Source of the DNA: a virus | Taxonomy: Duplodnaviria; Caudoviricetes | Strand: one strand, 5' to 3' | DNA: 64,000 bases | IMG/VR virus record: IMGVR_UViG_3300033075_001021 | Shown here: piece after piece, positions 21,744 through 64,000 of the stretch | Layout of the letters: each line of letters starts with the position of its first letter | Position numbering within the stretch: position 1 is the first letter of the stretch | Made by a program: the position numbers and the translations under genes | The notes under the pieces: generated by a model | Database searches by the model: none | What the model saw: the letters and a program-made list of their open reading frames with translations, nothing else | What the model was told of the DNA's origin: nothing

Positions 21744-24581
21744 TTAGATATTGTCAAATGAAGCACCAGTGTTCATGATATTAAATTCAATTTCAATGAA
21801 TTCAAGACTTCTGGTTGGCTTAAGGAATATCTTACCAGTTAATTGGTTTCTATCGATATCCTCAGGGTCATTGCTCAATACCACTCTAAAGTCTGTAAGA
21901 CCTCTTTCCGTTCTGATGTTATCCAAGATTGGATTAACAAGAGCTAAGAATTGGTTTCTTACAATTGTATCGTTTTGTTCGAACAACAATCTGATAGCAA
22001 CAGCAGAGATAAGCTTTCTAGCTTGAAGAAGTAATCTTCTAACATTGATTCTGTTAAGTGCAGAGTCTTTAACTTGAAGAGTCTTATTACCCCAAATCTT
22101 AATACCGTCAGATGTGAAGGTTGCGATTGGGTTAATTCTGTTCTCATAAAGAACGTCTCTCTCAGCCAATGTAAGCTTTTTACGTGCTTTTATAGCGTCA
22201 ACATCACCTCTTTGGATACCAGCAACAGCAAACCATGGGAATGCAATGTTATCGGTTAATGCAATGTTTCTTACCACATCTCTTGTAGGTGGAACATAAA
22301 TATAAACGTTGTTCTCAGCATCAAGGATTTGAATCCATGGCCAGTAAGTTGCGGTGTAGTTTGAATCATACATATCGTATAAGTTATCAGTAACATCACC
22401 AACATTTAACACACCACCAGAAGAGTCTGTATCAGGAGTTGTAACGATATACAATGAGTCAGCCCTATCCTCTTCAATCATTTCAATAGTTTGTTCAACT
22501 AAATTCGTGTTATCAAAGGTATCAATACCTGGTGTTGCAAACACGTTGATGTTAACAGCCTCAGGGTTTTTAAACGTCCAAATAGCTTCAAGGTATGCGT
22601 AGTAATCAGATGTAATACCCATGTCACCATTAGAAAGTGTTTTAGAGGTAAACACACCGCTAGATAAACCAGCTTGTCCTTTGGTACCATTGATAATAAA
22701 ACTATCTAAATTACTTCTTCTAGTTCTATATGCGTCCCATCCATCAAAACCACCGTAAAATGCACTTGTAAACTTACGAGCATATACTTTTTCATATGGA
22801 CCGTTAGCTAAACCACTTTCAGTTGTAAATGTCCAGTTACCTGTTTCAAATTCAAAAATAGGGTTGTAAGTTGCACCAGAGTTACCATTGATATAATATG
22901 TTACACCGTCAATAGTTGCCGTTGCAGCATTAATATCCATGTGGAAACCTTTTGTTAATCCAGTCCAATGGTCATAAGTTTGTCCAATTGGAACACCCTT
23001 ATAGTCAAAGAAGTCAGCATCAATACCTATGGTATTTGAAAGACCTAGATAATACTTACGTTTATTTTCAAATGTACCATATGTTTGTTTGTACATTATA
23101 TTTGGTGTCTGTACAGTTGTATTACTGTTGATTTGGTAATCCCTAACAGGGAAACCAACGAAACCAGCAGGGAAAGCGTCGCTTGTGTCAACAGTATCAT
23201 CCAATTCAACTAAAATGTAAGCTGATTTAGATGCGTATGTTCCATCAAGAGTACCAATTCTTCTAGCGATAAAGTTGTTAGAAGTTGGGTCCATTGTACA
23301 ACGAGTGAATGCTTCAAGTATGCTTGGTTGTGAATCAGTATCGTAGAATCCTCTAATATATACGTCAAATTCTTTAGTATCTGGCTTAATATTAGCAATA
23401 GAAACTTTAAACTGTTCGTTTGCAGCATTACCATCAGAAATAGTCCAGAATCTGAACAATCTTAACACCTTATTACCTCTTAATTCAGATACGAAGTAAG
23501 GGGTAACAGCTGGTTGATACTCTTGAAGGTAATCTTCAAAGCTATCTTGATATACAACTGGAGTTAGGTTAATACCTCTTATCTTTTCAGTTTGGTAATC
23601 ACTGTTAAACATGTTGTCGAATAATTCCTCAACATATATCGCAGTTTTACCGTCTTGAGGTGTTCTACCTAAAACTCTTGGTAAATAATTCTTTTGTGTT
23701 TTATCAAATGAACAAGAATAATTGAAATCACCCAAGGTAGTTGAATTACCACTTAATGAGAATGTACCTAACGGATTTGTTTCAGCCGCCGTAACACTTG
23801 GGTCAAAGATAACACTACCAGTAACTTGGAATGTCGGTACTTGAGTTGTAGCGTCAATAGAACCTCTTGAGCGTAAAAGCGCCACCAATTTATTTTCGAT
23901 ATCTGAATATCCAGTACCAACATCCTGAATTGTATAACCAGATGTTATACCAGTATAGGTACTACCAGTACTAGAAAGAATTGTTGATAATGTAAGACCG
24001 ACAGTTGCGGCTGTAAATGCATCACCTACCTTGACATATTCGCTTGAAACAACTGAGGTTTCACCACTAGTCATTGTCGCTAAGAAGTCAAATGTAATAG
24101 CACTTGTTGTGTATAGATAATTAAATAATGCGTCAGTAGAACTAACAGCAACCAATGTACCACCAGTTGTAGCGGTAAATGTTACAAGTGGGTCAACATA
24201 TGTTGTAGTTGCACTAATTGTGGTTGGGTCTAATGCTGCGTCTAAACTGATACCCCAGCTTGGACCTGCGTAATATCCAGAGAAACCTAAAATTCTTGTA
24301 ACGAACAATTGGTTTGACTGTGAGAGATATGATTTAGCAATGTATGGTAATTCATATAATGGCGCACCATTACCATCAGAGCCATTTACTAAGGTGTTGT
24401 CTAATCCACCAAAAAATGACTGGAACTCACCATAGTTGCTAATAAAAATTGGTTGGAATGCTGGCCCTTTGGTTGTCTCACCCACCAAACCCAACGTAGT
24501 AACACCTACTTGACGTGTTACGAAGGTTAAGTCTTTTTCTGAAGTGTAAACACCTGGACTAACGAATACTTTGTCTGCCAT
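21744..24581 (-). CDS. Tail sheath protein (T4 gp18-like)
   Basis: 945 aa; FVSPGVYTSEKDL, GETTKGPAFQP, YWPW, PWFAVAGIQRG, LYENRINPI, IWGNKTLQ...LNRINVRRLL, LLFEQND, KPTRSLEFI. Confidence 0.95.
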   Translation of the reverse strand: MADKVFVSPGVYTSEKDLTFVTRQVGVTTLGLVGETTKGPAFQPIFISNYGEFQSFFGGLDNTLVNGSDGNGAPLYELPYIAKSYLSQSNQLFVTRILGFSGYYAGPSWGISLDAALDPTTISATTTYVDPLVTFTATTGGTLVAVSSTDALFNYLYTTSAITFDFLATMTSGETSVVSSEYVKVGDAFTAATVGLTLSTILSSTGSTYTGITSGYTIQDVGTGYSDIENKLVALLRSRGSIDATTQVPTFQVTGSVIFDPSVTAAETNPLGTFSLSGNSTTLGDFNYSCSFDKTQKNYLPRVLGRTPQDGKTAIYVEELFDNMFNSDYQTEKIRGINLTPVVYQDSFEDYLQEYQPAVTPYFVSELRGNKVLRLFRFWTISDGNAANEQFKVSIANIKPDTKEFDVYIRGFYDTDSQPSILEAFTRCTMDPTSNNFIARRIGTLDGTYASKSAYILVELDDTVDTSDAFPAGFVGFPVRDYQINSNTTVQTPNIMYKQTYGTFENKRKYYLGLSNTIGIDADFFDYKGVPIGQTYDHWTGLTKGFHMDINAATATIDGVTYYINGNSGATYNPIFEFETGNWTFTTESGLANGPYEKVYARKFTSAFYGGFDGWDAYRTRRSNLDSFIINGTKGQAGLSSGVFTSKTLSNGDMGITSDYYAYLEAIWTFKNPEAVNINVFATPGIDTFDNTNLVEQTIEMIEEDRADSLYIVTTPDTDSSGGVLNVGDVTDNLYDMYDSNYTATYWPWIQILDAENNVYIYVPPTRDVVRNIALTDNIAFPWFAVAGIQRGDVDAIKARKKLTLAERDVLYENRINPIATFTSDGIKIWGNKTLQVKDSALNRINVRRLLLQARKLISAVAIRLLFEQNDTIVRNQFLALVNPILDNIRTERGLTDFRVVLSNDPEDIDRNQLTGKIFLKPTRSLEFIEIEFNIMNTGASFDNI

Positions 24582-24673
24582 ATTTTTTCTTTTGTTTTTT
24601 TAGGATTATTCTTGTTTATAATAAATATTCAAGAAAAACCGAAAAAAATGTTTGATTTATAAATATTTGAAAT

Positions 24674-25938: not shown

Positions 25939-28900
25939 TTATGCTATGTTTATTATCATTTGACCTTCAATACGTCTAGCCGTTGCATTTGTCCATGCTG
26001 AAAAGTTAGTATCATTCGCACCATTCGCCACTTCAACAACGTTAGTACCAGCTACTATACGCCATAACATTGTGGCTTGTGTTGTACTATTTACACCATG
26101 AATTATACCACGTTGTTCACCAGCCCAAGAACTAGCATTAAACGGTAGCGTAAATGATGTTGTTGTACCAGAACTATTTGGTGACGCACATCTGAAATCA
26201 AATTGTACAAACATGGTTTTACCCATAACCATATATTGGATTTGTTTAGTTGTTAAACTAGTTAAACCTGTTATACCAACAATAGCACTGTAATCAGTCC
26301 AACCCGTAAAATCAGACCTTGTAATTGTAGTAGTACCACCAGTATTGTTATTAAGGACAACCTGTGAAGTTGAATACGTACCACCAGTTGTTACCACATC
26401 TGTTATACCCGTAACAGTAAAGGTACCACCAGTATTATTTGTTAATGATAACGTTCTTGTGCTTTGATTAAATGTACCACCAGTTGTTACCACATCTGTT
26501 ATACCCGTAACAGTAAAGGTACCACCAGTATTATTCGTTAAAGTAAGTATACCAGATGATTTAGTATACGTACCACCAGTTGTAAATATATCCGTTGGTA
26601 AATTTTGATATGTAGTAGCACTTATTGTTGTACCGTTAATAAATTTATTTCCATTAACCCATAAACCAGTATTATCAATTTTCATTACTTCAGTTCTATT
26701 TGTAGAACCAGATGTTGTTGAATTAAATGATAAATAAGTACCCTGATTAGTCGATGACCAGTTTTCAGAAGCTATTAATGATATATTGGCTTTACTTGTT
26801 GAGGTAAATCCTGTTCCAAAGTAACCTCTACCACCAAATACACCGATTGTGTCTCCACTTTGTATAGCTGAAGGTGTTGTTGATGTACCTCTTGATTTAT
26901 AAGAAATAAATCCAGCGGAATTAGTATCGTTAGCATAACGATATAATGATATTTCATGTCCACTTGTGATACCTGTTATTGTGTATGAATTTGCTGTTAT
27001 GCTTGTTGCACTAAGACTAATAAATTTACCAAACCCATTACCGTCAATACTTGAAGTCGTTACATTCGAACCATTTTGACCTTCAAATATATTATCAGTA
27101 TCGGCAGTTGACCCCCTTTGAATTGTTAATGCCCCTCTAGCACTATCTGTTATAATTTCTGGTGTGTTAGAATTATCATAAGTCTGTTGTAATGTCAACG
27201 TACTAACCCCAATAGAACCAGCTAACGATTCACCAAATTTAGAAACAGGTAAAAATATTGCGTTTGTACTATTTGAAAGGTCCGTACAACCCTTTGTTAC
27301 TGATAATATACCAATGAGAATAGCCGCAGCAGATACATTTGAATATTGTGTGAATGTTTCAGTTGTGTGTGCCGCAATAGCATTGGACAATGATGTGTAA
27401 ATAGTTTGACCATATTGTACAATAACATTACCATTTGGAAATAAATAAATACGTTGATTTGTCGCTGCATTACTTGAGCCAGGAATTGTAGTAATCACAC
27501 CACCAACATCATATTTTGTTGGGTCGATATCAGTAATAGTTGTACCAGTACCACCTGTTTGTGTTCTATATTTAAAGGATACTGGCGTTGCAGATGGTGT
27601 ATTTACCTTATTAGGGTTACTGAAATCATTTCTAGCATTGACACCTAAACCAAATAAATAACCATTAGCCTTGTTAAATTTAAGATTAGCTCCATTTGGT
27701 GATAACCCATTACCAGTATTAATAAGATGAAGTTCGGAAATAACATCAAGAACCTTGGCGTTCGCACCCTCATACGTAGTAGTAAACGAATTAACATTAC
27801 CAATACTTGTTAAATTGGTGTGCCCAAGTTGTCCAAGTAAAATAATTTGTCTTCGTTGACTATTTGTTGGTTCAGTTGAATATTGTACTAACGTACCAGT
27901 TTTATCAATACCAATATAAGATAATGTTGACGATGAAAGATATGTTAGAGTAACCCCTGTTTGTGCAGAAATACTTACAGGATAAAGCGTTGGTTGTCCT
28001 GGGGTTGTCCACCAATCAACAATATATCCAACACCACTTGTTATATTAAATGTTGCAGTATTAGCACTATTAATTGTTATAACAGCACCAGAAATAAGAC
28101 CGCTAGCAAAATCTCTAGTCAAAACCGATATTAAACTATTACCACTAATTGTATTTGCAATTGTGTTACCTGTAGCTGCTGAAAGAGCTATAAATGTTCC
28201 ACTTGAATTTATTCCAGCTAAAGCCGATGAGGTACCAGAAAGTGCATTTACGGTAACATTTGTTGTTGCTGTAATACCTGTAAACGTCTCAATTCTGGTC
28301 GATACTGTTCCACCAGTACTATTTGTTAAGGTTAATGAATTATTTGTAAACGTACCACCAGTAATCAAGACATTTGAACCGCTTGTTGTACCAGTTGTAA
28401 AACCAGTTACTGTAACTGTACCGCCAGTACTATTTGTTAAAGTCAATGTACCGTTTGAATATGTACCACCAGTAATTAAAATACTTGTACCACTTGTTGA
28501 GCCGCTTGTTGTACCAGTTGTAAAACCAGCTATACTAACAGTACCACCAGTACTATTAACCAACGATAATGTACCATTCGAATATGTACCGCCAGTAATA
28601 AATTGACCAGTTACGGCTGAAACAGCCATCGTATGCACAATACCACTAACATCAACATTTAATAGCGTGTTATTAACCTCATTAATAAGACCCTGTACCC
28701 TTAATGGGTCGGTTGCAGCTGATATATGCAACTTATTAGTTGGTGAACCTGTAATACCAATACCTGTGTTATCCCCAGCACTATTAAGTAAGTTATTACC
28801 TGTAGTATTTTCAAATGCAATGTTGGTTCCTTTTAATGTTTGACTAAATGTTGGGTTATAGTAAAATCCACGTATAGTTGATGTGTTTGCTGATGCTTGG

Positions 28901-30795
28901 TCAAAGTTTGGATTGATGTTAAATATATTAACAACACCACTACCTGATGAATGTAAGCTTCTAAAGCTGACACCAAAACCTGATTTAGTACCTGATGTAT
29001 TTGATACATCACCCAAATACAACATTGCTTCTGTTGTACCTGTTGTGTTGTTTCCACCAGCTGTACCAAATGCAACCCTTGTTGTACCAGCACCACCCAA
29101 AAACAACATATTGTTGGCATATAATCTATATTCAGATAATCCCTGTGGATTATAAGAGAATACAGATTGACCACCAAAGAACCTTGTACTATGTGTAGTA
29201 TTCTGTCCTAGTTGAACACTACCACCCACATCTAATTTATATGATGGATTTAACCCAATACCAACGTTAGTACCATCATCAATAATTTGACTATCTGTTA
29301 ATCCAGTTGAACCAGACCACTTAGGTACATAATTGGTTGTACCACTACCAGCAATTATACCATTCTGAAAACCACTGATAGTAACCGTACCACCTGTGTT
29401 ATTCACAATTGATAATGTACCAGCACTATATGTACCACCAGTAATAAAGCTATCTGTTATACCAGTTACCGTAACCGTACCACCAGTATTATTAACTAAA
29501 GACAATACCCTAGTGTTCTGGTTAAATGTACCACCAGTTATTGTTGTATCAGTAAATGTTTGACCAGTTAAGAAACCACCAACACTAAATGTACCACCTG
29601 TGTTATTTACAAATGTAGCTGTTCCGTTACTGTATGTACCACCCGTAACAAAGGTATCTGTAACACCTGTTAAGAATCCACTTATGTTGATACTATTACC
29701 ACTTGAATTAATCAATGATAATATACCAGTAGTTTGGTTATACGTACCACCCGTAATAATACTTGGATTGAACGTATATGTTGTACCAAGATTATCCTCA
29801 AGTGTAATCTGATACAGAGTTGTAAACACATCTTGAATATATGTATTAGGTACACCTGCGTTAAAACCACTTACATTAAATGTACCACCTGTTGTATTTG
29901 TAAAAGTTGCAATACCATTGGTTGGATTATATGTACCACCAGTAACAAATACATCTGTTATACCAGTTATGGTAATAGTACCACCAGTATTATTTGTTAA
30001 TGATAATATTCCAGATGATTTGGTATACGTACCACCAGTGATTGATTCAGGTGTAAATATTTCTGTACCACCAGTACTATTAAATAATAATAAAGAATTA
30101 CCGTTTTGACTTGACCCTGTTAATCGATATGTGTTAATACCTGTTAATTGACTACCATCACCATAAAATGTTGTTGCGGAAATAGTAGTTGCACTAATTG
30201 AATCTGCAATTAAATTCCCAATTGTTAAACCTGTAAAATAATTGATGTACGTATTAAGATTAACACCATCATTTCTAGTAATAATTATTTGATTATTTGA
30301 AAATGTAAGACCTGTTGTATATATATCCTCTGTTGAAAATGATGATAAATCTAGTGTATATGCGGATAAAGCATCGGTTCGATTAAAGTATACTGTTTTC
30401 CCAACAAGAGTAGTTCCTGTTGTATAATAATCCGTAAAACCTGTTACAATAATAGTACTACCATTACTGTTATATAAAGTTAACGTATCGACGTTATTAT
30501 CGAATGTGCCACCAGTTAAATATATATCTCTTGATGAGAATATATCTAATAGATTTGTACCACCACTATAATATGTTGAGGCATAAATCGTGTCAGCCGT
30601 AATTGCGTTGTTTGTATATAAATTACCATCAAAGGTTATAACACCAGTACCCATAAAAATCTTGGTGTCACCTGAACAACCAATAATACTATTTGTGTAA
30701 ACAGCTGTACATGCGCTAATTACTTCTCGATTAACGACTGTTGGTTCAATGATAAAAGTCTCATTAATATTTGTTTGATTATCTAAACAGCTCAT
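25939..30795 (-). CDS. Long tail fibre-like protein with TGGT repeats
   Basis: 1618 aa, very Thr/Gly/Ser-rich; many roughly 30-32-aa units ITGGTY...L.L.N.TGGT.TVTG; fibre motifs (TNVGIG..P..KLDV.G); C-terminal receptor-binding-like domain. Confidence 0.8.
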   Translation of the reverse strand: MSCLDNQTNINETFIIEPTVVNREVISACTAVYTNSIIGCSGDTKIFMGTGVITFDGNLYTNNAITADTIYASTYYSGGTNLLDIFSSRDIYLTGGTFDNNVDTLTLYNSNGSTIIVTGFTDYYTTGTTLVGKTVYFNRTDALSAYTLDLSSFSTEDIYTTGLTFSNNQIIITRNDGVNLNTYINYFTGLTIGNLIADSISATTISATTFYGDGSQLTGINTYRLTGSSQNGNSLLLFNSTGGTEIFTPESITGGTYTKSSGILSLTNNTGGTITITGITDVFVTGGTYNPTNGIATFTNTTGGTFNVSGFNAGVPNTYIQDVFTTLYQITLEDNLGTTYTFNPSIITGGTYNQTTGILSLINSSGNSINISGFLTGVTDTFVTGGTYSNGTATFVNNTGGTFSVGGFLTGQTFTDTTITGGTFNQNTRVLSLVNNTGGTVTVTGITDSFITGGTYSAGTLSIVNNTGGTVTISGFQNGIIAGSGTTNYVPKWSGSTGLTDSQIIDDGTNVGIGLNPSYKLDVGGSVQLGQNTTHSTRFFGGQSVFSYNPQGLSEYRLYANNMLFLGGAGTTRVAFGTAGGNNTTGTTEAMLYLGDVSNTSGTKSGFGVSFRSLHSSGSGVVNIFNINPNFDQASANTSTIRGFYYNPTFSQTLKGTNIAFENTTGNNLLNSAGDNTGIGITGSPTNKLHISAATDPLRVQGLINEVNNTLLNVDVSGIVHTMAVSAVTGQFITGGTYSNGTLSLVNSTGGTVSIAGFTTGTTSGSTSGTSILITGGTYSNGTLTLTNSTGGTVTVTGFTTGTTSGSNVLITGGTFTNNSLTLTNSTGGTVSTRIETFTGITATTNVTVNALSGTSSALAGINSSGTFIALSAATGNTIANTISGNSLISVLTRDFASGLISGAVITINSANTATFNITSGVGYIVDWWTTPGQPTLYPVSISAQTGVTLTYLSSSTLSYIGIDKTGTLVQYSTEPTNSQRRQIILLGQLGHTNLTSIGNVNSFTTTYEGANAKVLDVISELHLINTGNGLSPNGANLKFNKANGYLFGLGVNARNDFSNPNKVNTPSATPVSFKYRTQTGGTGTTITDIDPTKYDVGGVITTIPGSSNAATNQRIYLFPNGNVIVQYGQTIYTSLSNAIAAHTTETFTQYSNVSAAAILIGILSVTKGCTDLSNSTNAIFLPVSKFGESLAGSIGVSTLTLQQTYDNSNTPEIITDSARGALTIQRGSTADTDNIFEGQNGSNVTTSSIDGNGFGKFISLSATSITANSYTITGITSGHEISLYRYANDTNSAGFISYKSRGTSTTPSAIQSGDTIGVFGGRGYFGTGFTSTSKANISLIASENWSSTNQGTYLSFNSTTSGSTNRTEVMKIDNTGLWVNGNKFINGTTISATTYQNLPTDIFTTGGTYTKSSGILTLTNNTGGTFTVTGITDVVTTGGTFNQSTRTLSLTNNTGGTFTVTGITDVVTTGGTYSTSQVVLNNNTGGTTTITRSDFTGWTDYSAIVGITGLTSLTTKQIQYMVMGKTMFVQFDFRCASPNSSGTTTSFTLPFNASSWAGEQRGIIHGVNSTTQATMLWRIVAGTNVVEVANGANDTNFSAWTNATARRIEGQMIINIA
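26378..26535 (-). repeat. 96-nt-period direct repeat within the fibre gene
   Basis: gtaccaccagttgttaccacatctgttatacccgtaacagtaaaggtaccaccagtattatt at 26378 and 26474. Confidence 0.85.
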
Positions 30796-31844: not shown

Positions 31845-31854
31845 GATTTAAAAT

Positions 31855-54436: not shown

Positions 54437-54437
54437 A

Positions 54438-56346: not shown

Positions 56347-56354
56347 GTTAGTTG

Positions 56355-56385: not shown

Positions 56386-56402
56386 TTCAAAATTCATTAT
56401 CT

Positions 56403-56969
56403 ATGTTAAAATCAGAACAAATTGTAAAAAACACCAAAAAATTCTTCCAAACAGCGCTAGAACACGGTATTATGAACGATGAACTTATGACCTTTTTAGG
56501 CGAAGAATTCATCAAAGCCCCTGCCACCGCAATGAAAGACCAATATAACGCATTTGAAGGTGGTTTAATAGACCACCTTTTAAATGTAACTAAGTATGCG
56601 GTTATATTTAACAACGCCCTTCCAGAGACAGAAAAAGTAGACCAAAAGTCACTCATCCGTGTATGTCTCCTACATCAAATAGGAAAGGCCCATCTCTACA
56701 CTCCATGCCAATCAGAGTGGCATCGTAACAATCAAGGTAAAATGTACGAATACAAGAATGACCAAGTAGCCATGCGTGTGGCTGAGCGTTCATTGTATTA
56801 CGCTCTAAATCACGGTATTAAGCTTACCGATGAAGAGTATGCTGCCATCCTTATGTCCGACAAAACTGACGACAAGATGGCCGAATACCACAATACAATG
56901 CTTGGTGATTTATTAAAAACCGCAGCACTTTTTGCGATTAAAAACGAAAAAAAGAGAGCCAATGACTAA
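56403..56969 (+). CDS. YhaM-like HD-fold protein with degenerate metal ligands
   Basis: APA......AFEGGLIDHLLNV...LLHQIGK..Y, with HQ in place of HD. Start moved to ATG 56403, downstream of the promoter. Confidence 0.7.
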   Translation: MLKSEQIVKNTKKFFQTALEHGIMNDELMTFLGEEFIKAPATAMKDQYNAFEGGLIDHLLNVTKYAVIFNNALPETEKVDQKSLIRVCLLHQIGKAHLYTPCQSEWHRNNQGKMYEYKNDQVAMRVAERSLYYALNHGIKLTDEEYAAILMSDKTDDKMAEYHNTMLGDLLKTAALFAIKNEKKRAND

Positions 56970-57543
56970 TAACGAATTATATGATAAAATGCAAGAAAGA
57001 ATCTTGGATATAGCCAATCCAAATGTTGACTATACACAAGAAGATTTTGATAAAGAATTTGGTTTGTTTACGGTTACAAACTTTGATTTTGCAAAGATTC
57101 ATATCAATTTTGTTAACAAATCTAAGAACCAAAATCCAGAATATGCAACGGATGGTTCAAGTGGATTTGATTTAAGAGCTAATCTTGAAACACCATTTAC
57201 ACTTGAAAGTGGAAAATTTGCGGTTATTCCGACTGGTTTATTTTTTGAAATACCACAAAACTTTGAAATACAAGTAAGGCCAAGGAGTGGATTGGCAGCA
57301 AAATGGGGGGTTACGGTATTAAACACACCAGGCACCGTTGACGCTGATTATCGAGGTGAAGTAAAGGTGATACTTATCAATCACGGTCAAGAACCATTTG
57401 TAATTAACAGTGGTGATAGAATCGCACAAGGTGTTATCGCTAGCGTTTACGGAAAAAATATTATCTCACTCAACCAAGTTTCAAAAATCACAGATAGAAC
57501 AGAACGCTCATCTGGTGGTTTTGGTCATACAGGTATTAAATAA
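56962..57543 (+). CDS. dut: Trimeric dUTPase
   Basis: GFDL, RPRSGLA, GTVDADYRGE, GDRIAQ, R..GGFGHTG (motifs I-V); N-terminal extension of about 45 aa. Confidence 0.95.
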   Translation: MTNNELYDKMQERILDIANPNVDYTQEDFDKEFGLFTVTNFDFAKIHINFVNKSKNQNPEYATDGSSGFDLRANLETPFTLESGKFAVIPTGLFFEIPQNFEIQVRPRSGLAAKWGVTVLNTPGTVDADYRGEVKVILINHGQEPFVINSGDRIAQGVIASVYGKNIISLNQVSKITDRTERSSGGFGHTGIK

Positions 57544-57549
57544 ATAAAC

Positions 57550-58536
57550 ATGAAATTAGACTTCAACGATTTGCTAATTGTTCCAAAAGAAATTAGTAGT
57601 ATTACCACTAGGTCAATTATCAATCCATATGTTAATGGTAAACTACCATTAATTACAGCTCCGATGGATACCGTTTTATCTGAAACAAATGCTAAATTTT
57701 TCAGTGAAAATAAAATTGAAATTTGCCAACCAAGATATCACCAAATAGAGGATGGTTTTAGGTCTTATTCAATTCAACAAATGCGAAATCTGTATAATTC
57801 AAAGCAATTGAAAAATGGAAAATATTTGATTGATATTGCAAATGGGCATATGGATAGCGTATTGCATTTAACCAAAGCAATAAAAAAAAGAGAACCAGCG
57901 ATAACATTAATGGTTGGAAACATTGCCAATCCAGAAACTTATCGTATATTATCAGAAGCTGGTGCTGATTATATTAGGGTCGGCATAGGCAATGGTGGTG
58001 GCTGTTTAACAACCCAAAACACTGGTGTTGGGTATCCGATGGCCTCTTTGATAAGAGAGTGTTATGAAATATCAACAACACTTAAAAATCCAGCATATAT
58101 TGTCGCCGATGGTGGCATGAAAGATTATAGTGATATTATTAAGGCATTAGCATTAGGTGCCGACTACGTAATGTTAGGTAGTATATTGAACAAGTCGCTT
58201 GAATCGGCTGGTGATAACTTCCTGTGGAAGAAAATTAAGGTACCACAAAAAGTCGCTGAATTTGCCTACAGACATGGTGTTCCAGTTTATAAGCTATTCA
58301 GGGGTATGAGTACAAAAGAAGTTCAGAAAAAATGGGGTGCCGAGAAAATAAAAACCTCAGAGGGTGTTGTTAGATATCGTAAAGTTGAATACACACTCTC
58401 ACAATGGACCGAAAATTTTGAACACTATTTACGTTCAGCTATGAGTTATGCTGGCGCTTTAAACCTTAATGAATTTATCGGAAAAGCCAATCTTGTTCAA
58501 ATAACAGATAATGCATATAAACGTTTTAACAAATAA
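57550..58536 (+). CDS. IMP dehydrogenase / GMP reductase family enzyme without CBS domains
   Basis: LDFNDLLIVP, TAPMDTV, IDIANGH, VGIGNGGGCLTT, ADGG...DIIKALALGADYVMLG, FRGMS, SEGV, LRSAMSY.G. Confidence 0.88.
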   Translation: MKLDFNDLLIVPKEISSITTRSIINPYVNGKLPLITAPMDTVLSETNAKFFSENKIEICQPRYHQIEDGFRSYSIQQMRNLYNSKQLKNGKYLIDIANGHMDSVLHLTKAIKKREPAITLMVGNIANPETYRILSEAGADYIRVGIGNGGGCLTTQNTGVGYPMASLIRECYEISTTLKNPAYIVADGGMKDYSDIIKALALGADYVMLGSILNKSLESAGDNFLWKKIKVPQKVAEFAYRHGVPVYKLFRGMSTKEVQKKWGAEKIKTSEGVVRYRKVEYTLSQWTENFEHYLRSAMSYAGALNLNEFIGKANLVQITDNAYKRFNK

Positions 58537-60185
58537 TGATTAGTGTAATATATTGTACAAGAGAAACAAATCCAAACCATGTTGAGCATTTAAAGAAAAC
58601 ATCTGGACTACATAAAAATCTTGAAGTTATTGAAATAATCAATAATGGTGAGGATTTAACCAAATCATATAATCGTGGTTTAAACCTAGCCACGAATGAT
58701 ATCGTCGTGTTTTGTCACGACGATATTACTATTGAAACCAATAACTGGGGAAATAAGCTTATCAAACTTTTCAAAAACAATCCAGACTACGGAATCATTG
58801 GCGTTGCTGGAACAAAATATCTGGCCGATACTGGTAAGTGGTGGGAAGATAGAAAGAAGATGTATGGCCGTGTGGCACACACACATGAAGGTAATACTTG
58901 GTTATCGTCATACAGTGACGATTTAGGTCAAGAATTAGAAGAAGTTGTTGTAGTTGATGGTGTATTCTTTGCCATTGATAAACAAATTGCTATCATTCCA
59001 TTTGACGAATCAGTCAAAGGTTTTCACTTTTACGATGTTACATTTTGTTTTCAAAACTACCTAAATAACACTAAAATTGGCGTTACCACCATGGTAAGAG
59101 TTAATCATAGGTCTATTGGTATGACCAATGAACAATGGGATGAAAACAGAAAAGAATTCGCTGAAAGATATAGTGACAAACTACCAGTTAAAATCAAAAA
59201 AGTTCTTCGTAAAAATGAAAAGCTTAAAGTTTTAATTGGATGTCTCAACTTTAATAGTTTTACTGGCTCTGAACTCTACGTCTTTGAATTAGCTAAAGCG
59301 TTGGTTAAACAAAATTGCGACGTTACCGTGTGTTCAAATATTGGTAATCCATTAGCTATGGTTGCTAAACAACACGGAATCAAATTAGCCACCCTTCAAG
59401 AACCACCTGGTTTTAAATTAGGTGATGGTGAATGGTCATTAAAGAGTGTACAGGGTGAAGTCAAGTCACAACCAAACACACTATATAAGCTTAGCGATGT
59501 TAATTTTGATGTATTACACTTAAACCATACACCAGTAACAGAACACCTTCTTAGATTGTATCCAGATACACCAACAATTTGTAGTATACATTCTGAAGTA
59601 ATTGCACTTGAGAACCCTGTTGTTAACCCACAAATCAAGAAATATATTGCAATACGGCCAGAAATCAAAGACCATATTGTCAGGAACTTTAAAATACCTG
59701 AAGAAATTGTTGATGTGGTGTATAATCCGATTGACGCAGTTAGATTTAAACCTTTAAATCAAACCAAAAAAAACGACAAAAAAAGAATTCTATTTGTTGG
59801 TACTATTGATTATCTTAGGCGAGAAACAATAATGGACCTTATTGAAACAACACGTATCAATAATGAAGAATTGTGGATTGTGGGTAAGAAAAATGAAAAC
59901 TATCTTGATGAAGCGCTTCAGAACGCACCACACGTAAAATACTTCGAACCAACGAACAAGGTAGAAAAGTTTATTCAGGATTGTGATGAAACTGCTGGTA
60001 TTCTTTTAGGTAGAACAACAATTGAGGGTTGGTTATGTGGAAAAGGCGGTTGGATATATGATGTTGACTCAGCGGGTAGCATTAAATCCAAGTCTTTTCA
60101 TCCAGTACCATCCGATGTCGAGAAATTTAAGAGTGAAAATGTTGCAAAAGAAATAATTCAAGAATACAAACAAATACTTGATTAA
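58536..60185 (+). CDS. Bifunctional glycosyltransferase (GT-A + GT-B fusion)
   Basis: N-half: SYNRGL...VVFCHDD, FDE...FHFYD. C-half: GSELYVFELAKAL, VVYNPID..RF, ILFVG, GRTTIEGW.CG. Confidence 0.85.
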   Translation: MISVIYCTRETNPNHVEHLKKTSGLHKNLEVIEIINNGEDLTKSYNRGLNLATNDIVVFCHDDITIETNNWGNKLIKLFKNNPDYGIIGVAGTKYLADTGKWWEDRKKMYGRVAHTHEGNTWLSSYSDDLGQELEEVVVVDGVFFAIDKQIAIIPFDESVKGFHFYDVTFCFQNYLNNTKIGVTTMVRVNHRSIGMTNEQWDENRKEFAERYSDKLPVKIKKVLRKNEKLKVLIGCLNFNSFTGSELYVFELAKALVKQNCDVTVCSNIGNPLAMVAKQHGIKLATLQEPPGFKLGDGEWSLKSVQGEVKSQPNTLYKLSDVNFDVLHLNHTPVTEHLLRLYPDTPTICSIHSEVIALENPVVNPQIKKYIAIRPEIKDHIVRNFKIPEEIVDVVYNPIDAVRFKPLNQTKKNDKKRILFVGTIDYLRRETIMDLIETTRINNEELWIVGKKNENYLDEALQNAPHVKYFEPTNKVEKFIQDCDETAGILLGRTTIEGWLCGKGGWIYDVDSAGSIKSKSFHPVPSDVEKFKSENVAKEIIQEYKQILD

Positions 60186-61249
60186 TGAAAAAAACCGTAA
60201 TTACGATAACGGGTATTCGACCAGATTTCATTAGAATGTCTGAAATATTTAAAAAGCTTGATGAGAATTTTAATCATATTCTTATACATAGTGGTCAACA
60301 TTATGATAAGCTTTTATCTGACGTATTTTTTGAAGAATTAGAAATTCGTAAACCAGACTATAATCTTGCAATTGGTGGGCCAAATAAAGAGCATTTTCAT
60401 CAAGCCGCTGACCTTTCAATAAAGGTTATTGAGCTTATTAGGGAAAAAAATCTAAACCCAGATTTAATTATTTTTTTAGGCGATTCAAATTCGGTTGTAT
60501 GTTCGGTCCCACTTAAAAAAGAAGGTTATAAAATTGCACATATAGAAGCTGGAATGCGTTCTGGTGATAACAGAATGTTAGAAGAAATTAATAGAAAAGT
60601 TTGTGATACATGTAGCGACTTATTATTTGTTTATCACGATAATTACAGAATGAAATTAGCTAATGAAAACATTACTAAAGGTGTATATGTTGTTGGAAAC
60701 ACAATTGTCGAGGTCGCTAGTAAATTTATTCCTTTGGAACAAAAACGTAACGATAGGATATTGTTAGATATTCATAGGCCTGAGAACTTTAAATATAAAG
60801 AAAGGCTTGAGAATATTGTAGAATATTCAAAAATGATGGCAAATAAATTTCATGTCCCAATTTTTATGCTTGAGTTTCCTAGGACAATGAAAGCAATTGA
60901 TGAGTTTAGAATTGATTTAGGTGAAATTGATGCTGTCCCTCTTCAACCGTTTAAGAAGTATTTACATCAAGTTTATCATTCAAAATTTATTATTTCAGAT
61001 TCTGGGACAGCGCAAGAAGAACCAGCTTTGTTAAAAACACCTGTAATTGTTCCAAGAGATTATACTGAAAGACCAGAATCACTAATATATAGCTGTTCAT
61101 ATATGATTGATGTTAATACAAAACATAATTTAACGTGGGATATATCGTCTGATTTCATTCAAAATGGTTATACATCCATGGATAACAGTTGGCTTGGGGA
61201 TGGGACCACATCCGATAAAATAATTGAAACATTAAAGAATGTGTTATGA
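60185..61249 (+). CDS. wecB: UDP-N-acetylglucosamine 2-epimerase (non-hydrolysing family)
   Basis: GIRPDFI, HSGQHYD, GDSNS, HIEAGMRS, EEINR, HRPEN, SDSGTAQEE, ERPE. Confidence 0.9.
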   Translation: MKKTVITITGIRPDFIRMSEIFKKLDENFNHILIHSGQHYDKLLSDVFFEELEIRKPDYNLAIGGPNKEHFHQAADLSIKVIELIREKNLNPDLIIFLGDSNSVVCSVPLKKEGYKIAHIEAGMRSGDNRMLEEINRKVCDTCSDLLFVYHDNYRMKLANENITKGVYVVGNTIVEVASKFIPLEQKRNDRILLDIHRPENFKYKERLENIVEYSKMMANKFHVPIFMLEFPRTMKAIDEFRIDLGEIDAVPLQPFKKYLHQVYHSKFIISDSGTAQEEPALLKTPVIVPRDYTERPESLIYSCSYMIDVNTKHNLTWDISSDFIQNGYTSMDNSWLGDGTTSDKIIETLKNVL

Positions 61250-62052
61250 TTTCTATTGCCACACCATATTATAATCGTAAACCTCAGTTTATCAATACAC
61301 TTAAAACGATTCAAAAGTCTAAACAAATTGATAATCTTGAATTAATTGTTGTTGATGATTGCTCATCCGATGAACATAAGTTAGACGATATTCCAGACCA
61401 ATTTCCATTTGTTAAGGTGATTACACTTAAGAAAGAAGATAGGTTTTATATCAATCCGTGTATTCCCTTTAATAAAGCCATAAAAGCAGCAACAGGGGAT
61501 ATTATTGTGTTACAAAATCCAGAATGTTTACATGTTGGTGATATTTTAACCGACATCGTAAATCGAATTACGGATGACAATTATCTCACCTATGGTGTTT
61601 ATTCAGCGAGTCAAGAAATTAGTTCTTATATTAATGAACTACCGTTTGAAAATGAACATATTTTTAATATGATTAAATCACAGTTAATGCCAATGAACAA
61701 TATCAACTATGTTAGTGAGGGGCAATCATGTTGGTATAATCATTCAATTTATCGACCAGCGGCGTATCACTTTGTTGCTGCAATATCAAAGAAAAATATG
61801 GACAAATTAGGCGGCTTTGATGAAAGATATTATAATGGTATTGGTTTTGATGACGATGAATTCTTATATAGGATAAAGGTTTTGGGTTTAAATATTGAAA
61901 TACACGATAATCCGTTTGCGGTTCATCAATGGCATTATAGTGAAAACAATTTTTTTGCTAATGCTGATAATGTTAGTTTAGCTATACAGCGTAACCAAGA
62001 TTTATTTAATAATGTAACAAAAAAGTTTAAAAAACCAAATGTTAATTCCTAG
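61246..62052 (+). CDS. GT2-family glycosyltransferase
   Basis: ISIATPYYNR, IVVDDCSSD, FNKAIKAATGD, GGFDERY..GFDDDEF..R. Confidence 0.88.
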   Translation: MISIATPYYNRKPQFINTLKTIQKSKQIDNLELIVVDDCSSDEHKLDDIPDQFPFVKVITLKKEDRFYINPCIPFNKAIKAATGDIIVLQNPECLHVGDILTDIVNRITDDNYLTYGVYSASQEISSYINELPFENEHIFNMIKSQLMPMNNINYVSEGQSCWYNHSIYRPAAYHFVAAISKKNMDKLGGFDERYYNGIGFDDDEFLYRIKVLGLNIEIHDNPFAVHQWHYSENNFFANADNVSLAIQRNQDLFNNVTKKFKKPNVNS

Positions 62053-62836
62053 GATAATGAATTTTTATTGGGGTGGTCAAAATCTATCATACCTACAATA
62101 TTTAACAATATTGAGTTTTCATAAATTTAATCCTTTATGGAGAATTGTTTTACATACCCCAATAGAACCGTCAAACGAAATTACTTGGATAACAGATGAA
62201 CATAGCGTTAACTATATAGGACCAAATTATTTGGATGATTTAAAATCACTTCAATATGTGAATTTTAATGTTGTTGATTTTAATGAAATTGGTTTTTTTA
62301 ATAATTCCCCAGAAGTCTTTAAATCTGATTATCTTAGATGGTATTTACTATCAACACAAGGTGGTGGATGGTCTGATATGGATATTCTTTACATTAAGCC
62401 GCTAAATGAATTGATAGACGCGAAGATACAAAATTTAGTTTGCTTAGGTAAATATGGTAATATAATTGGGTTTTTGCTTTCAATACCAAATAACCCTTTA
62501 TTTAAGAGACTTTTGGATAATTCTATTCATTATTTTAATCCTAGCGATTATCAATCAATTGGTTCAAAGTTAATGAATATATTTTATCCAAACGAAACTA
62601 GTTTATTTTATGAGTTCCCAATGACAAAAAACATTGATATGGATTCATTTTACAAAATAAATCATGAAAATTTGATTGATTTATTCTATAATAATAGAAT
62701 AGATGTTATTACTGATGACGTAATCGGTGTTCATTGGTATAATGGTTCAAACATAGCTAAACAATATAATAACGAATATTCACAGGGAAAACGAAGTGAC
62801 TGTACAATAAATGAAATAATAAAAAAAATAATATGA
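62039..62836 (+). CDS. DXD-motif glycosyltransferase (GT32/Och1-like)
   Basis: IPRIMNFYWGG...SDYLRWYLL...GGGWSDMD. Confidence 0.85.
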   Translation: MLIPRIMNFYWGGQNLSYLQYLTILSFHKFNPLWRIVLHTPIEPSNEITWITDEHSVNYIGPNYLDDLKSLQYVNFNVVDFNEIGFFNNSPEVFKSDYLRWYLLSTQGGGWSDMDILYIKPLNELIDAKIQNLVCLGKYGNIIGFLLSIPNNPLFKRLLDNSIHYFNPSDYQSIGSKLMNIFYPNETSLFYEFPMTKNIDMDSFYKINHENLIDLFYNNRIDVITDDVIGVHWYNGSNIAKQYNNEYSQGKRSDCTINEIIKKII

Positions 62837-64000
62837 AAATAATTGGTTTTACACAACTACGAAATGAGTTATCAAAGGGTAATTTAGAAAATTGGTTTAA
62901 ACAAATGTCAGTATGTGACTACATATACATATTTGACCAAAATTCAGATGACGGCAGTCTCGAATACTATAAAAAATTTGATAACGTTGTCGTTATTGAG
63001 TCACCAACAAATCGTTTTAATGAAGAGTTGATTTGTAAAAAAGAACTACTAGATAAATTATTATTTGACCATCCAGATACAGACTGGATTTTATGGTTAG
63101 ATGGCGATTTATTATTAGACGGTAGATTACTTGCTAATGATGGTAAAGAACTAAAAGAATTATGTAGATTAGGAAGCGTACACAAGATAGATGGTTATCT
63201 CTTTAATCACTATAATCTATGGAGAAGTGATATCTATTATCGTGTCGATGACCAATATCATTCATTAGATGGCAACTGGTGTCCGTTATGGAGAAATAAC
63301 GGGAACCTTAAATTTGATGCCACCGCTGGGCTACACCTACTTCAATACCCAAAAGGTATGCAAAACCTAAAACACACACCATATGCCGTTGTACACAGAG
63401 GATTTGCTACTGATTATCAAATCATAACGAAATACGAAGTATATAAGGCAAATGGGCAAAATGGTTGGAAACTTGAGAGATTACTGGATGAATATACACT
63501 AACAGTACACGAACTTGAGCGTGAATTACTTCCAGAGTGGTTTGAAGTCACCGATGATGTGAATCCAATAAACAAACGTAGGTTAAGAGAGATTTATGAA
63601 GAACAAAAAGGTATTACAAAACCAATAAATAAAAACCTTGAAATTATTACACTTATTTTCAAGTCAATAGATTATCTTGACCTAATCTATAATGAATTAA
63701 AAAGTGATAAGTGTAAAGTTGATGGTTGGGAAATAACACACAGAATTGTAGCAAATGATGCAACACCTGAGGTAATTGAAAAGCTAAAGACGCTAGATAT
63801 TCCATATACAATTTATAATGACCCAAAACCAGACGATTATTATCTGAACCGTGTATATCGTTGTTGGAACTTTGCTGGTAAAACAAGTAAGGCTGACAAT
63901 ATTTGTTTTGTTAATTCAGATATGGTTTTCAGTAAAGATTGGTTGGGTAATTTATTAAAGCACCATAACGGGATTAATATTCCGTGTTCAAGATTGGTAG
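62833..64000 (+). CDS. Tandem GT2-like glycosyltransferase (3' end beyond window)
   Basis: Manual translation from ATG 62833: MKIIGFTQLRNE...IFDQNSDDGS...WILWLDGD, then a second domain LEIITLIF...IVAND...WNFAG...ICFVNSDMVFSKDWL; frame open to the window end. Confidence 0.8.
   Translation, partial: MKIIGFTQLRNELSKGNLENWFKQMSVCDYIYIFDQNSDDGSLEYYKKFDNVVVIESPTNRFNEELICKKELLDKLLFDHPDTDWILWLDGDLLLDGRLLANDGKELKELCRLGSVHKIDGYLFNHYNLWRSDIYYRVDDQYHSLDGNWCPLWRNNGNLKFDATAGLHLLQYPKGMQNLKHTPYAVVHRGFATDYQIITKYEVYKANGQNGWKLERLLDEYTLTVHELERELLPEWFEVTDDVNPINKRRLREIYEEQKGITKPINKNLEIITLIFKSIDYLDLIYNELKSDKCKVDGWEITHRIVANDATPEVIEKLKTLDIPYTIYNDPKPDDYYLNRVYRCWNFAGKTSKADNICFVNSDMVFSKDWLGNLLKHHNGINIPCSRLV

Follow-up and report, generated by a model that had tools for sequence, protein, structure and literature searches.

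Tail-fibre genes and an adjoining glycosyltransferase island

The window examined here, a 64-kb stretch of DNA (64,000 nucleotides) from an uncultured phage of ~300 kb, encodes a tail sheath and fibre proteins on the minus strand and an island of glycosyltransferase (GT) genes on the plus strand:

21744..24581, minus strand: tail sheath, 945 aa (Pfam Phage_sheath_1 and sheath_1C, residues 658-935)
25939..30795, minus strand: 1618-aa tail fibre (PHROG 16641, tail fibre)
40100..41887, minus strand: 595-aa protein with an N-terminal PKD domain (Pfam K319L-like PKD, E 6e-19)
41897..44140, minus strand: collagen-like fibre with four CBM5/12 copies and a C-terminal fibre module (Pfam Collagen, CBM_5_12)
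44154..45338, minus strand: 394-aa fibre-module protein, with 200-290 aa in common with the 1618-aa fibre
45360..48668, minus strand: 1102-aa fibre with 17-aa SNFIG..AG repeats (51-bp and 357-bp tandem repeats)
48661..50448, minus strand: lectin-fold protein, 595 aa, whose lectin jelly-roll core is concanavalin/LamG-like (model hits include CBM40 and further lectin-like jelly rolls)
50462..51661, minus strand: S74 (intramolecular chaperone) tail fibre, 399 aa (Pfam Peptidase_S74, E 1e-16), first gene of the fibre operon
54415..54466, plus strand: hairpin with a T-run, then TTGACT-N17-TATATT, ahead of the GT operon
54498..55763, plus strand: soluble GT-B (GT4-like) glycosyltransferase, 421 aa (PHROG 7162, glycosyltransferase, E 1e-41)
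56352..58536, plus strand: HD-domain, dUTPase/dCTP-deaminase-like and IMPDH/GMP-reductase-like proteins (Pfam)
58536..60185, plus strand: 549-aa fusion of GT-A (Pfam Glyco_tranf_2_5) and GT-B (Pfam Glyco_transf_4)
60185..61249, plus strand: WecB-type non-hydrolysing UDP-GlcNAc 2-epimerase (Pfam Epimerase_2, E 7e-61)
61246..62052, plus strand: GT2 (GT-A) glycosyltransferase of the variable cassette (Pfam Glycos_transf_2)
62039..62836, plus strand: GT32-like DXD glycosyltransferase of the variable cassette (Pfam Gly_transf_sug, Caps_synth and Gb3_synth, all weak)
62833..63999, plus strand: protein with two GT2-type domains (Pfam Glyco_tranf_2_4, residues 28-93; Glycos_transf_2, residues 308-378), running past the window end

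The hairpin and the TTGACT-N17-TATATT element indicate that the GT operon is a separate transcription unit. Its 421-aa GT-B gene lies ~3 kb from the fibre operon, an order kept in a 306-kb relative whose counterpart enzyme is 68% identical. The protein has thousands of close homologues but matched no Pfam family and, by sequence, no PDB entry; the top PDB folds for its AF2 model (pLDDT 78) were GlgM, MshA, BshA, PglA and SdgB. We consider it the candidate initiating enzyme.

The other transferases form a swappable cassette. The N-terminal ~395 aa of the GT-A/GT-B fusion are conserved in the 306-kb relative, and the fusion is absent from the 735-kb megaphage LR756501; neither the epimerase nor a homologue of the GT2 at 61246..62052 was found in the 306-kb relative. 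Against TIGR00236 (wecB) the epimerase scored E 2e-51, under the family cut-off. A first-pass annotation of this DNA had counted about seven GT domains and a UDP-GlcNAc 2-epimerase, and both the seven domains and a WecB-type epimerase were confirmed. In the GT proteins no membrane segment stands out clearly, and the 64-kb window encodes no flippase, polymerase or initiating lipid transferase. The HD, dUTPase-like and GMP-reductase-like genes separate two conserved GT genes, again in an order kept in the 306-kb relative, and in LR756501 the distance between the GT-B and a gene of the thymidylate-synthase family is 1.5 kb; the presence of the GT-B among nucleotide-pool genes is compatible as well with a function in DNA or nucleotide-sugar chemistry.

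A tetrapeptide enriched in tail-exterior proteins of particular phages

The first-pass annotation had singled out the tetrapeptide [S/T][G/A]x[T/S] as recurring in virion proteins of different folds. Measured against shuffles of whole sequences and of local 30- and 15-aa blocks, the excess is real and significant in each of the outer proteins named, while enzymes are at expectation. With the collagen protein left out, pooled [ST][GA]x[ST] gave an observed/expected ratio (O/E) of 2.9 (z 16), compared with 0.95-1.5 for six reorderings of the same residue classes. The proposed alternation of Thr and Ser at the last position did not hold: pooled [ST][GA]xT stood at O/E 4.3 (z 20) and [ST][GA]xS at 0.97. 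The enriched word is thus [S/T]-[G/A]-x-T, with Thr only at position 4, Pro uncommon at x and a mostly hydrophobic residue at -1. When all gapped three-residue words were scanned without bias, SGxT (30 versus 4.4) came first outside one 17-aa tandem repeat.

The word occurs at 3-6 times the local-shuffle expectation in eight tail-exterior proteins of the window, the excess being present individually in all eight (z 3.6-13.9) with control patterns flat. No mutual homology was detected among five of them (sheath, PKD protein, 17-aa-repeat fibre, lectin-fold protein and S74 fibre), which together carry 60 matches versus 13.8. Enzymes, tube, tape measure and hub were at expectation, as were seven reordered control patterns. 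Matches to [ST][GA]xT numbered 0 in the tape measure, p959 and PolB (0.7-1.1 expected) and 2 and 3 in p1344 and p1773 (2.5 and 1.6 expected); the wider [ST][GA]x[ST] gave 0 in the tube, 1 in the hub and 2 in the polymerase. The polymerase count equals the first-pass estimate, which had also rightly given the tape measure few.

In the S74 fibre, [ST][GA]xT occurs 11 times versus 2.4 and [ST][GA]x[ST] 16 times versus 4.2; 15 of the 16 fall within the first ~170 residues, as the first-pass count of about 15 had it. Its estimate of about 11 for sheath residues 120-280 was likewise exact (11 of 14 [ST][GA]x[ST] matches, with 5.7 expected overall). The 11 sheath matches to [ST][GA]xT (versus 3.4, controls flat) concentrate in a non-conserved N-terminal insertion (~105-300). 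The "dozens" assigned to the 1618-aa fibre stand as a count (80 [ST][GA]x[ST] matches versus 27, and 73 [ST][GA]xT versus 17.7), although 26 of the 73 are TGGT from a periodic ITGGTY...N-x-TGGT module. TGGT is periodic in ~16/32-aa modules both in this fibre and in the C terminus of the collagen protein, which is homologous to it, and fibre modules are common to three window proteins, including the 394-aa protein (8 versus 2.1). The PKD-domain protein has 9 versus 3.0 (wider word, 13 versus 4.8). The 17-aa-repeat fibre also carries the motif as noted before, with 13 versus 2.6, 10 of the 13 N-terminal of residue 340. The collagen protein, cited earlier as support, has to be set aside, its count being an artefact of Gly periodicity and repeats: in the Gly-X-Y tracts, a shuffle with Gly fixed left no excess (8 versus 7.0). 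Its remaining matches sit in the four CBM5/12 copies and the shared fibre module.

The lectin-fold protein is the best single case of the motif. Its [ST][GA]xT count is 16 versus 2.3, with controls at 1-2, and the repeated matches noted before amount to 17 versus 3.5 for the wider word. Its family alignment holds 15.6 motifs per sequence versus 0.6-3.0 for controls, and 39 variable motif columns (577 occurrences) versus 7-18 columns for control patterns; substitutions retain S/T, G/A and T while x varies. In its AF2 model, which is of low confidence exactly at many motif sites, the motifs lie in helix, coil, a two-residue hairpin, mid-strand and low-confidence loops. Among 79 sheath homologues the motif has an O/E of 2.8, with turnover not above that of control patterns, and five sites are each retained by 90% or more of the sequences.

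The same word emerges from 101 divergent fibres sharing the S74 fibre's C terminus, in the N-terminal parts of which O/E is 3.85. Across divergent fibres (55 kaa), enrichment was 4.9-fold for S and 2.7-fold for T at position 1, 3.9-fold for G and 3.8-fold for A at position 2, and 3.9-fold for T at position 4, where S and Val (1.1-fold each) were not enriched. Pro at x stood at 0.8-fold, and the -1 residue was strongly hydrophobic or aromatic, charged residues there reaching at most 0.2-fold. Motif-to-motif spacing was uneven in 89 fibres, with peaks at 7, 10-11, 17 and 21 residues. With three sharp positions and a free third one, the motif behaves, from its residue pattern, like a tag read by something.

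The distribution of the motif is limited in two ways, to proteins of the tail exterior and to certain phage clades. Among the open reading frames (ORFs) of the 306-kb relative, 12 have an O/E of 3.65 versus 0.87 for the other 280; in LR756501, 16 ORFs stand at 4.2 and the remaining ORFs at 1.07. The excess is absent from T4 (0.84-1.07), the 484-kb phage LR756508 (0.76-1.27), phi92 (1.15), a Flavobacterium phage (1.43) and a Microcystis phage (1.27). The major capsid protein of the 306-kb relative has 4 matches versus 1.5, but controls behave alike, and this lack of specific enrichment indicates that the motif marks the tail, not the whole virion. In a profile search, the GT-B was present in both of the deep motif-bearing lineages and absent from four of the five motif-free phages; in phi92 the profile found only weak fragments. 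Distant homologues of the GT (26% identity) are present in phi92. The link between transferase and motif rests on gene neighbourhood and on seven genomes, and as two of these are motif-positive, the co-occurrence may reflect shared ancestry.

A putative sugar-attachment tag and its rivals

The motif excess in tail proteins, together with the adjoining soluble GT genes, makes the word look like a candidate sugar-attachment tag. We tentatively propose, with slightly less than even confidence, that Phi-[S/T]-[G/A]-x-T is a putative O-glycosylation sequon whose readers would be soluble GTs of the phage itself, acting in the cytoplasm. The tag would be written onto the tail sheath and fibres where these are exposed, and the GT4-fold enzyme (54498-55763) would add the first sugar, at the position-1 Ser/Thr or the position-4 Thr. 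Position 1 seems the likelier acceptor because Ser and Thr are both tolerated there, the strict Thr at +3 then serving for recognition, like the Thr of N-x-T. The variable cassette (GT-A/GT-B fusion, WecB epimerase, GT2, GT32-like and double-GT2 proteins) may supply UDP-ManNAc and extend a glycan that would differ between strains. The outcome would be a sugar coat over the tail exterior, head not included; the virion-wide coat of the first-pass annotation is unsupported, since the motif is missing from capsid, tube and hub. Its sequon proposal draws support from the specificity of the word, its clade limits and the conserved GT4-fold neighbour, and less well accommodates the sheath turnover and the turn-like context. 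Most known O-glycosyltransferases have no strict sequon.

A serious rival, doubtful in our estimation, is that the word is a clade-specific structural micro-motif spread by module shuffling and needing no reader, in which a buried hydrophobic residue, Ser/Thr, a small residue, any residue and Thr form a strand edge, tight turn or beta-bulge. The periodic TGGT of the ~16/32-aa modules, the hydrophobic or aromatic -1 residue with charged residues excluded, the Gly or Ala at position 2 and the uneven fibre spacing also fit such a strand-edge or turn element. The modules common to three window proteins, the modelled two-residue hairpin and the conserved sites of the sheath family, with no excess turnover, point the same way. 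Against it, Val has the same shape as Thr and is, like Ser, not enriched at position 4; the motif is carried by unrelated folds (jelly roll, PKD domain, CBM5/12 copies and sheath insertion), and helix and mid-strand are among the modelled sites. S/T/G-rich fibres of T4, phi92, the Flavobacterium phage and the Microcystis phage lack the motif, as do the same phage's beta-rich inner tail proteins, and site gain and loss in the lectin-fold family is 3-5 times more frequent than for control patterns.

We think it improbable that the tag is read by something other than a GT. On that view Ser/Thr might be phosphorylated, nucleotidylated or acylated, the word might be bound by an assembly chaperone, or it might touch the surface polysaccharide of the host directly; the GT island would then have a different target, such as DNA, glycans of the host envelope or a small molecule. 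A GT is not the sole candidate, since 25 genes of the 306-kb relative are common to LR756501 and found in none of four motif-free genomes, among them a nucleotidyltransferase-fold protein, ClpB and DnaJ; yet the set that accompanies the motif includes three glycan genes (GT-B, GT2 and a sugar epimerase/dehydratase). Nucleotide-metabolism genes interleave the conserved GT genes here, and a thymidylate-synthase-family gene lies near the LR756501 GT, but genes of that family score like T4 td (274-289 bits), unlike the T4 hydroxymethylase gp42 (58 bits). No kinase was seen in the window, and the GT island directly adjoins the fibre operon both there and in the 306-kb relative.

A statistical artefact of composition, low complexity or repeats is very improbable and already largely refuted by the control analyses: the collagen excess vanished once Gly was fixed, repeats supply part of the fibre count, and BLAST without composition correction aligns most of these S/T/G-rich proteins to one another, but the signal survives shuffling within blocks of 15 and 30 aa and comparison with seven permuted control patterns and five negative-control phages, holds in proteins without mutual homology and in the family alignments, and is recovered by the unbiased word scan.

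Comparison with known glycosylation systems

The fold family of the 421-aa GT-B includes the protein O-GlcNAc transferase SdgB, and GtfA is a further GT4 protein O-GlcNAc transferase. Like SdgB and SdgA (PDB 7VFL and related entries), the phage enzyme has a retaining GT-B (GT4) fold, and the acceptors of SdgB, SdgA and GtfA are Ser residues within short words that are repeated in surface proteins. However, the fold match is generic for GT4, with GlgM, MshA, BshA and PglA ranking higher and identity at 12-16%, and the SdgB/SdgA substrate word differs from the phage motif.

A rare defined three-residue O-sequon is D-(S/T)-(A/I/L/V/M/T) of the general O-glycosylation system of Bacteroidota, a host system that acts in the periplasm with lipid-linked glycans. 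The phage word is different, and virion proteins assemble in the cytoplasm. Bacteroidota is the predicted host phylum of similar aquatic jumbo phages (PMC12619734); the Flavobacterium phage lacks the present motif.

In mycobacteriophages, O-linked glycans decorate the C-terminal tails of siphophage capsid and tail-tube proteins (Freeman et al. 2023, Cell Host Microbe, as summarized in PMC12619734). There, as proposed here, phage-encoded GTs are thought to modify the phage's own structural proteins in the cytoplasm. Unlike in those phages, as that summary describes them, capsid and tube here are free of the motif, the candidate substrates belong to a ~300-kb myophage and comprise its sheath insertion and fibres, the word is short and defined, and the glycan is only predicted. 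Chlorovirus PBCV-1 also uses virus-encoded soluble GTs to glycosylate virion proteins in the cytoplasm, at sites that, as proposed here, are not the host's sequon; its glycans are N-linked to Asn of the major capsid protein of a eukaryotic virus, whereas O-linked glycans on tail proteins of a bacteriophage are the candidates here (PMC7019647).

In Clostridioides difficile, SgtA attaches O-GlcNAc to Thr of the Gly-Pro-Thr repeats in BclA3, a Gly-x-Thr context, and tolerates Ser for Thr (PMC7157674). SgtA combines a GT-A domain with TPR repeats, an architecture absent from the window, and, unlike in BclA3, the collagen tracts here are the one place without motif excess. The proposed phage system would resemble it in a soluble transferase, an outer-surface fibre substrate and a GT gene adjoining the substrate gene (PMC7157674), and consecutive Gly-Pro-Thr repeats read T-G-P-T, compatible with the motif.

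Gene layout and excess of a four-residue motif

The window comes from an uncultured myophage, has 33% GC and covers genes for the tail, the fibres and replication. Its lectin-fold protein is recorded on a 303,928-bp contig, and the GenBank phage collection contained neither near-identical DNA nor any phage close at the DNA level. The features are arranged as follows.

Minus strand: SSB gene
Minus strand: large tail proteins of 1773 aa and 1344 aa
13571-16099, minus strand: tape measure
16406-17602, minus strand: baseplate hub
17604-18134 and 18236-18724, minus strand: two adjacent tail-tube paralogues
Minus strand: 959-aa protein
21744-24581, minus strand: sheath
25939-30795, minus strand: 1618-aa fibre
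After the 1618-aa fibre and before the fibre operon: SNF2 helicase, 382-aa protein and family-B DNA polymerase
51661 down to 39717, minus strand: seven-gene fibre operon
From 54498, plus strand: glycosyltransferase (GT) block

The fibre operon encodes, in order, the S74 fibre (50462-51661), the lectin-fold protein (48661-50448), the 17-aa-repeat fibre (45360-48668), a 394-aa module protein, the collagen/CBM5-12 protein (41897-44140), the PKD protein (40100-41887) and a 123-aa ORF. A small-gene operon that includes a WYL-domain protein (53089-53802) separates it from the GT operon. Directly upstream of the sheath gene lies a 137-aa ORF (24674-25087) with a single segment that strongly resembles a membrane span (Kyte-Doolittle 19-residue mean, 2.3). 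The second tube paralogue (18236-18724) is 93% identical to the tube protein of a syntenic 306-kb phage, hereafter the relative, and the first (17604-18134) is far more diverged.

The octamer ATATTTAT occurs 20 times in the window, 15 of these within the roughly 2 kb of intergenic DNA. Twelve sites spanning 12693-51707 (e.g., 24621, 18760, 16117 and 51678) lie in the correct orientation 12-80 nt upstream of gene starts, among them those of the sheath, tube, tape measure, fibre operon and SSB, and the octamer is probably the phage's own promoter element. In its place, TTGACT-N17-TATATT precedes the GT operon. Promoter class was considered as a clue to timing, but the SSB gene also carries ATATTTAT, and the relative's GT gene carries ATATTTAA.

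The first-pass annotation had proposed the word [S/T]-[G/A]-x-[T/S] as an O-glycosylation sequon placed on exposed virion surfaces. Its hand counts of this word were correct on recount, and every outer protein that it named was enriched for this word against global shuffles and against shuffles in 30- and 15-residue blocks, which preserve local composition. Pooled without the collagen protein, the wider word had an observed/expected ratio (O/E) of 2.9 (z 16), compared with 0.95-1.5 for six reorderings of the same residue classes; with Thr in last place ([ST][GA]xT, hereafter the motif) the ratio was 4.3 (z 20), and with Ser it was 0.97. Eight proteins were each enriched singly for the motif (O/E 3-6; z 3.6 to 13.9), while seven control patterns were flat. 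There were no matches in the tape measure, the 959-aa protein or the polymerase; the 1344-aa and 1773-aa proteins were at expectation (two and three matches), and the wider word matched once in the hub and zero to one times in the tube proteins. When six outer proteins were scanned for every gapped word of three residues, SGxT (30 vs 4.4 expected) and SAxT (13 vs 2.6) were the top signals, ranked after words of the SNFIG..AG tandem repeat.

Repetition within proteins accounts for part of the count. TGGT within a periodic ITGGTY...L-x-L-x-N-x-TGGT module supplies 26 of the 73 matches in the 1618-aa fibre. The repeats of the 17-aa-repeat fibre are motif poor, and 10 of its 13 matches fall before residue 340; in the gene for this 1102-aa fibre, two copies of a 357-bp unit, each encoding seven of the 17-aa SNFIG..AG repeats, are 98% identical (46068-47000), which points to recent repeat expansion. 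The collagen had been counted as support and might have served as a fold-independent test, but when shuffled with Gly held in register, its Gly-X-Y tracts contained 8 matches vs 7.0 expected, and that count now carries no weight. The remaining matches in this protein belong to its four CBM5/12 copies, which are near-identical, or to a C-terminal module that the 1618-aa fibre also has. Among the sheath, the PKD protein, the 17-aa-repeat fibre, the lectin-fold protein and the S74 fibre, mutual homology was undetectable by default BLAST (without composition correction, repeat masking took whole proteins), and together they carry 60 motifs vs 13.8 expected.

Positional specificity and spread among phages

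Across 55 kaa of fibre sequence, the excess of the motif over composition was sharply position specific. Position 1 favoured S (4.9x) and T (2.7x), any other residue reaching at most 1.2x; position 2 accepted G (3.9x) and A (3.8x) alike; position 3 could be anything (Pro, 0.8x; Gln, 1.0x); and position 4 favoured T (3.9x) over S and V (1.1x each). At position -1, W, F, L and Y were favoured, and R, K, D and E were nearly excluded.

Sites within one family turn over. In 60 lectin-fold sequences of 55-85% identity, there were 15.6 motifs per sequence, compared with 0.6-3.0 for control patterns; six sites were kept in at least 90% of the sequences, and 39 variable columns contained the motif, compared with 7-18 for controls. 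Substitutions respected the word (S/T, G/A, x free, T fixed, as in SGVT, SGIT, TGVT and SGFT), and new copies arose via insertions. The signal was weaker in the sheath family, where variable columns did not exceed controls. When the lectin-fold protein was modelled with AF2 (pLDDT 63.7), the jelly-roll core was confident and matched CBM40 and other lectin-like modules, and motif sites fell in a helix (residue 107), coil (54, 118 and 129), a two-residue hairpin (413), mid-strand (419) and several low-confidence loops. The copies apparently share no single local structure in a model that is weakest at many of these very sites. Residues 228-245 of the same protein contain three consecutive [S/T]-[G/A]-C-T words (TGCT, SACT and VGCT, the last being SGCT or TGCT in most homologues) in a conserved Cys-rich stretch that overlaps the motif and may be a disulfide or metal cluster.

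The motif could be purely structural and specific to a clade, a credible if less probable reading: a strand-edge or turn element would be consistent with the hydrophobic residue at -1 and the small one at position 2, and also with the periodicity of the modules and the unevenness of the spacing. A word read by some enzyme is suggested by the sharp residue classes, by the third position being free, by the avoidance of Pro and by confinement to the tail exterior, as well as by occurrence in unrelated folds, turnover in one family and clade limits.

Sheath homologues at 80 IMG/VR loci (66-88% identity) had an O/E of 2.8, and nonhomologous fibres adjoining them reached 4-6. In the relative, which is 86% complete, 12 ORFs contained 137 motifs vs 37.6 expected, compared with an O/E of 0.87 in the remaining 280. 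Using the S74 C terminus as a handle, we fetched diverse fibres: 101 representatives with the whole S74-fibre C terminus had an N-terminal O/E of 3.85 (1280 vs 332; controls, 0.93-1.22), and 21 with the S74 domain alone in common were mixed (O/E 1.44). Because of spacing peaks and flanking Trp preferences, these fibres appear to carry shared modules and are not fully independent.

A more distant lineage, the 735-kb megaphage LR756501, has a sheath barely recognisable as related to that of the window, and 16 of its ORFs contained 220 motifs vs 52 expected, with an O/E of 1.07 in the other 589; this count leaves out six giant low-complexity ORFs of 814-3487 aa at 102897-124287 (L163-L164) and 399882-422930 (L118-L120). 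In the three at 399882-422930, the patterns in very strong excess are [ST][GA]xS and [ST]x[GA]T and not the motif, a different repeat style within the same megaphage. No motif excess was found in the structural regions of T4 (O/E 0.84-1.07), in 150 kb of the 484-kb phage LR756508 surrounding its tail genes (0.76-1.27), in phi92 (1.15), in Flavobacterium phage immuto (1.43) or in Microcystis phage Mel-JY01 (1.27).

The glycosyltransferase block

Seven GT domains and a WecB-type epimerase were confirmed in 54498-64000, where the first-pass annotation had counted about seven GT domains and a UDP-GlcNAc 2-epimerase. None of the GT proteins has a convincing membrane segment, and Pfam searches of the window found no flippase, polymerase, ligase or membrane-bound initiating transferase of a lipid-linked (Wzx/Wzy or O-oligosaccharyltransferase) pathway. 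Comparison with the relative divides the block into a conserved core and a variable cassette. In the core, whose gene order is kept, are the 421-aa protein at 54498-55763 (68% identity), the genes for the HD, dUTPase-like and GMP-reductase-like proteins, and residues 1 to ~395 of a 549-aa GT-A/GT-B fusion (58536-60185). The cassette, for which the relative has nothing corresponding, comprises the epimerase and the four GT domains downstream.

The 421-aa protein was modeled with the two-Rossmann-domain GT-B fold and lies closest to GT4 members. Its best Foldseek matches (E, 7e-11 to 1e-7; TM, 0.5-0.6) were GlgM, MshA, BshA, PglA and SdgB, the last of them a protein O-GlcNAc transferase. It has no Glycos_transf_1 or Glyco_transf_4 match and no Pfam, NCBIfam or PDB sequence match, the sole sequence match being PHROG 7162 (“glycosyltransferase”). 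Close homologues number in the thousands, some of them interrupted by LAGLIDADG elements; in two of about 730 aa (P0329 and P0348), the insertion (PF14528) suggests an intein or homing element within a highly conserved gene.

The profile of this GT-B enzyme was full length in LR756501 (E, 5e-82), but searches of LR756508, T4, the Flavobacterium phage and the Microcystis phage gave no match and phi92 only weak fragments. The small base of the association between GT and motif, two positive genomes and five negative ones, is a point against the glycosylation reading. LR756501 lacks the GT-A domain of the 549-aa fusion. A phylogenetic profile could not single out a reader of the motif: 25 genes occur in both the relative and LR756501 but in no negative genome, a GT2 and a sugar epimerase/dehydratase among them, and these are too many to choose among. 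Phi92 was considered as a cultured positive and set aside, as it has distant GT-B homologues yet no motif excess in its structural proteins, and no cultured model was found. Two of its four adjacent glycosyltransferase genes (gp163-166; L107, record 102200-105376) are those distant homologues.

In both motif-bearing lineages, the GT-B gene lies among nucleotide-pool genes. This placement counts against glycosylation and leaves some room, though not much, for another kind of reader of the motif. T4-type DNA glycosylation depends on a pyrimidine hydroxymethylase for its acceptor base. Thymidylate-synthase-family genes of the relative and LR756501 scored 274-289 bits, which resembles T4 td and not gp42 (58 bits), and a search for Tet/JBP was uninformative, since it matched in no genome, its own control genomes included. 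We consider it very improbable, given the shuffle controls described here, that the motif excess is an artefact.

Glycosylation as a proposed reading of the motif

Our preferred reading, held tentatively and at somewhat less than even confidence, is that the motif is a glycosylation sequon on tail-exterior proteins, and the conserved soluble GT encoded alongside stands out as the candidate reader. A virion-wide coat is not supported: outward tail proteins are enriched, but the tube and the relative's gp23-like major capsid protein (4 motifs vs 1.5, with controls equal) have no specific excess. In the fuller model, one conserved soluble GT4-fold initiating enzyme would read the sequon in a jumbo-myophage clade, a swappable transferase cassette would extend the glycan, and the sheath and fibres would carry a dense, strain-variable glycan coat, with sites gained and lost over evolution. 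That a true sequon Phi-[S/T]-[G/A]-x-T (x not Pro), with reader, cassette and coat all as proposed, operates across a large, uncultured clade of aquatic jumbo myophages is possible but, taken whole, unlikely.

If the motif is a sequon, sequence alone would suffice to predict where thousands of proteins from uncultured phages are glycosylated, and the motif and its enzyme would form a compact cytoplasmic O-glycosylation tag for glycoengineering. Such a sequon would also be relevant to the masking or tuning of tails by large aquatic phages in the face of host defences, proteases and nonspecific adsorption. A structural motif would still be a useful marker of exposed fibre modules in the clade.

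To our knowledge, experimental proof of self-glycosylation of phage particles is limited to a few actinophages and to giant viruses, and no tailed phage has a defined acceptor word; our literature search found no paper defining such a motif. Virion glycosylation of the mycobacteriophage type uses phage-encoded glycosyltransferases, such as the window also encodes, but its acceptor sites are on capsid and tail-tube subunits, unlike the pattern in the window's tubes and the relative's capsid. SgtA/OGT-type enzymes have TPR repeats fused to the catalytic domain, whereas no TPR match occurred in the scanned proteins of 21744-64000. The gain and loss of sites in the glycan shields of animal viruses resembles what is proposed here for the tail motif. 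The action of SgtA on Gly-Pro-Thr repeats offers a chemical precedent (PMC7157674), and chloroviruses have virus-encoded cytoplasmic glycosylation at non-host sites (PMC7019647). The aquatic jumbo “moraphages,” with predicted Bacteroidota hosts, are reported to carry genes for chaperones and, in their core set, four glycosyltransferase families whose target is unknown (PMC12619734). The relative also encodes ClpB and DnaJ homologues (L092:13072-15570 and L100:11658-12686), a reported trait of that group, so its clade and the moraphages may be the same or related.
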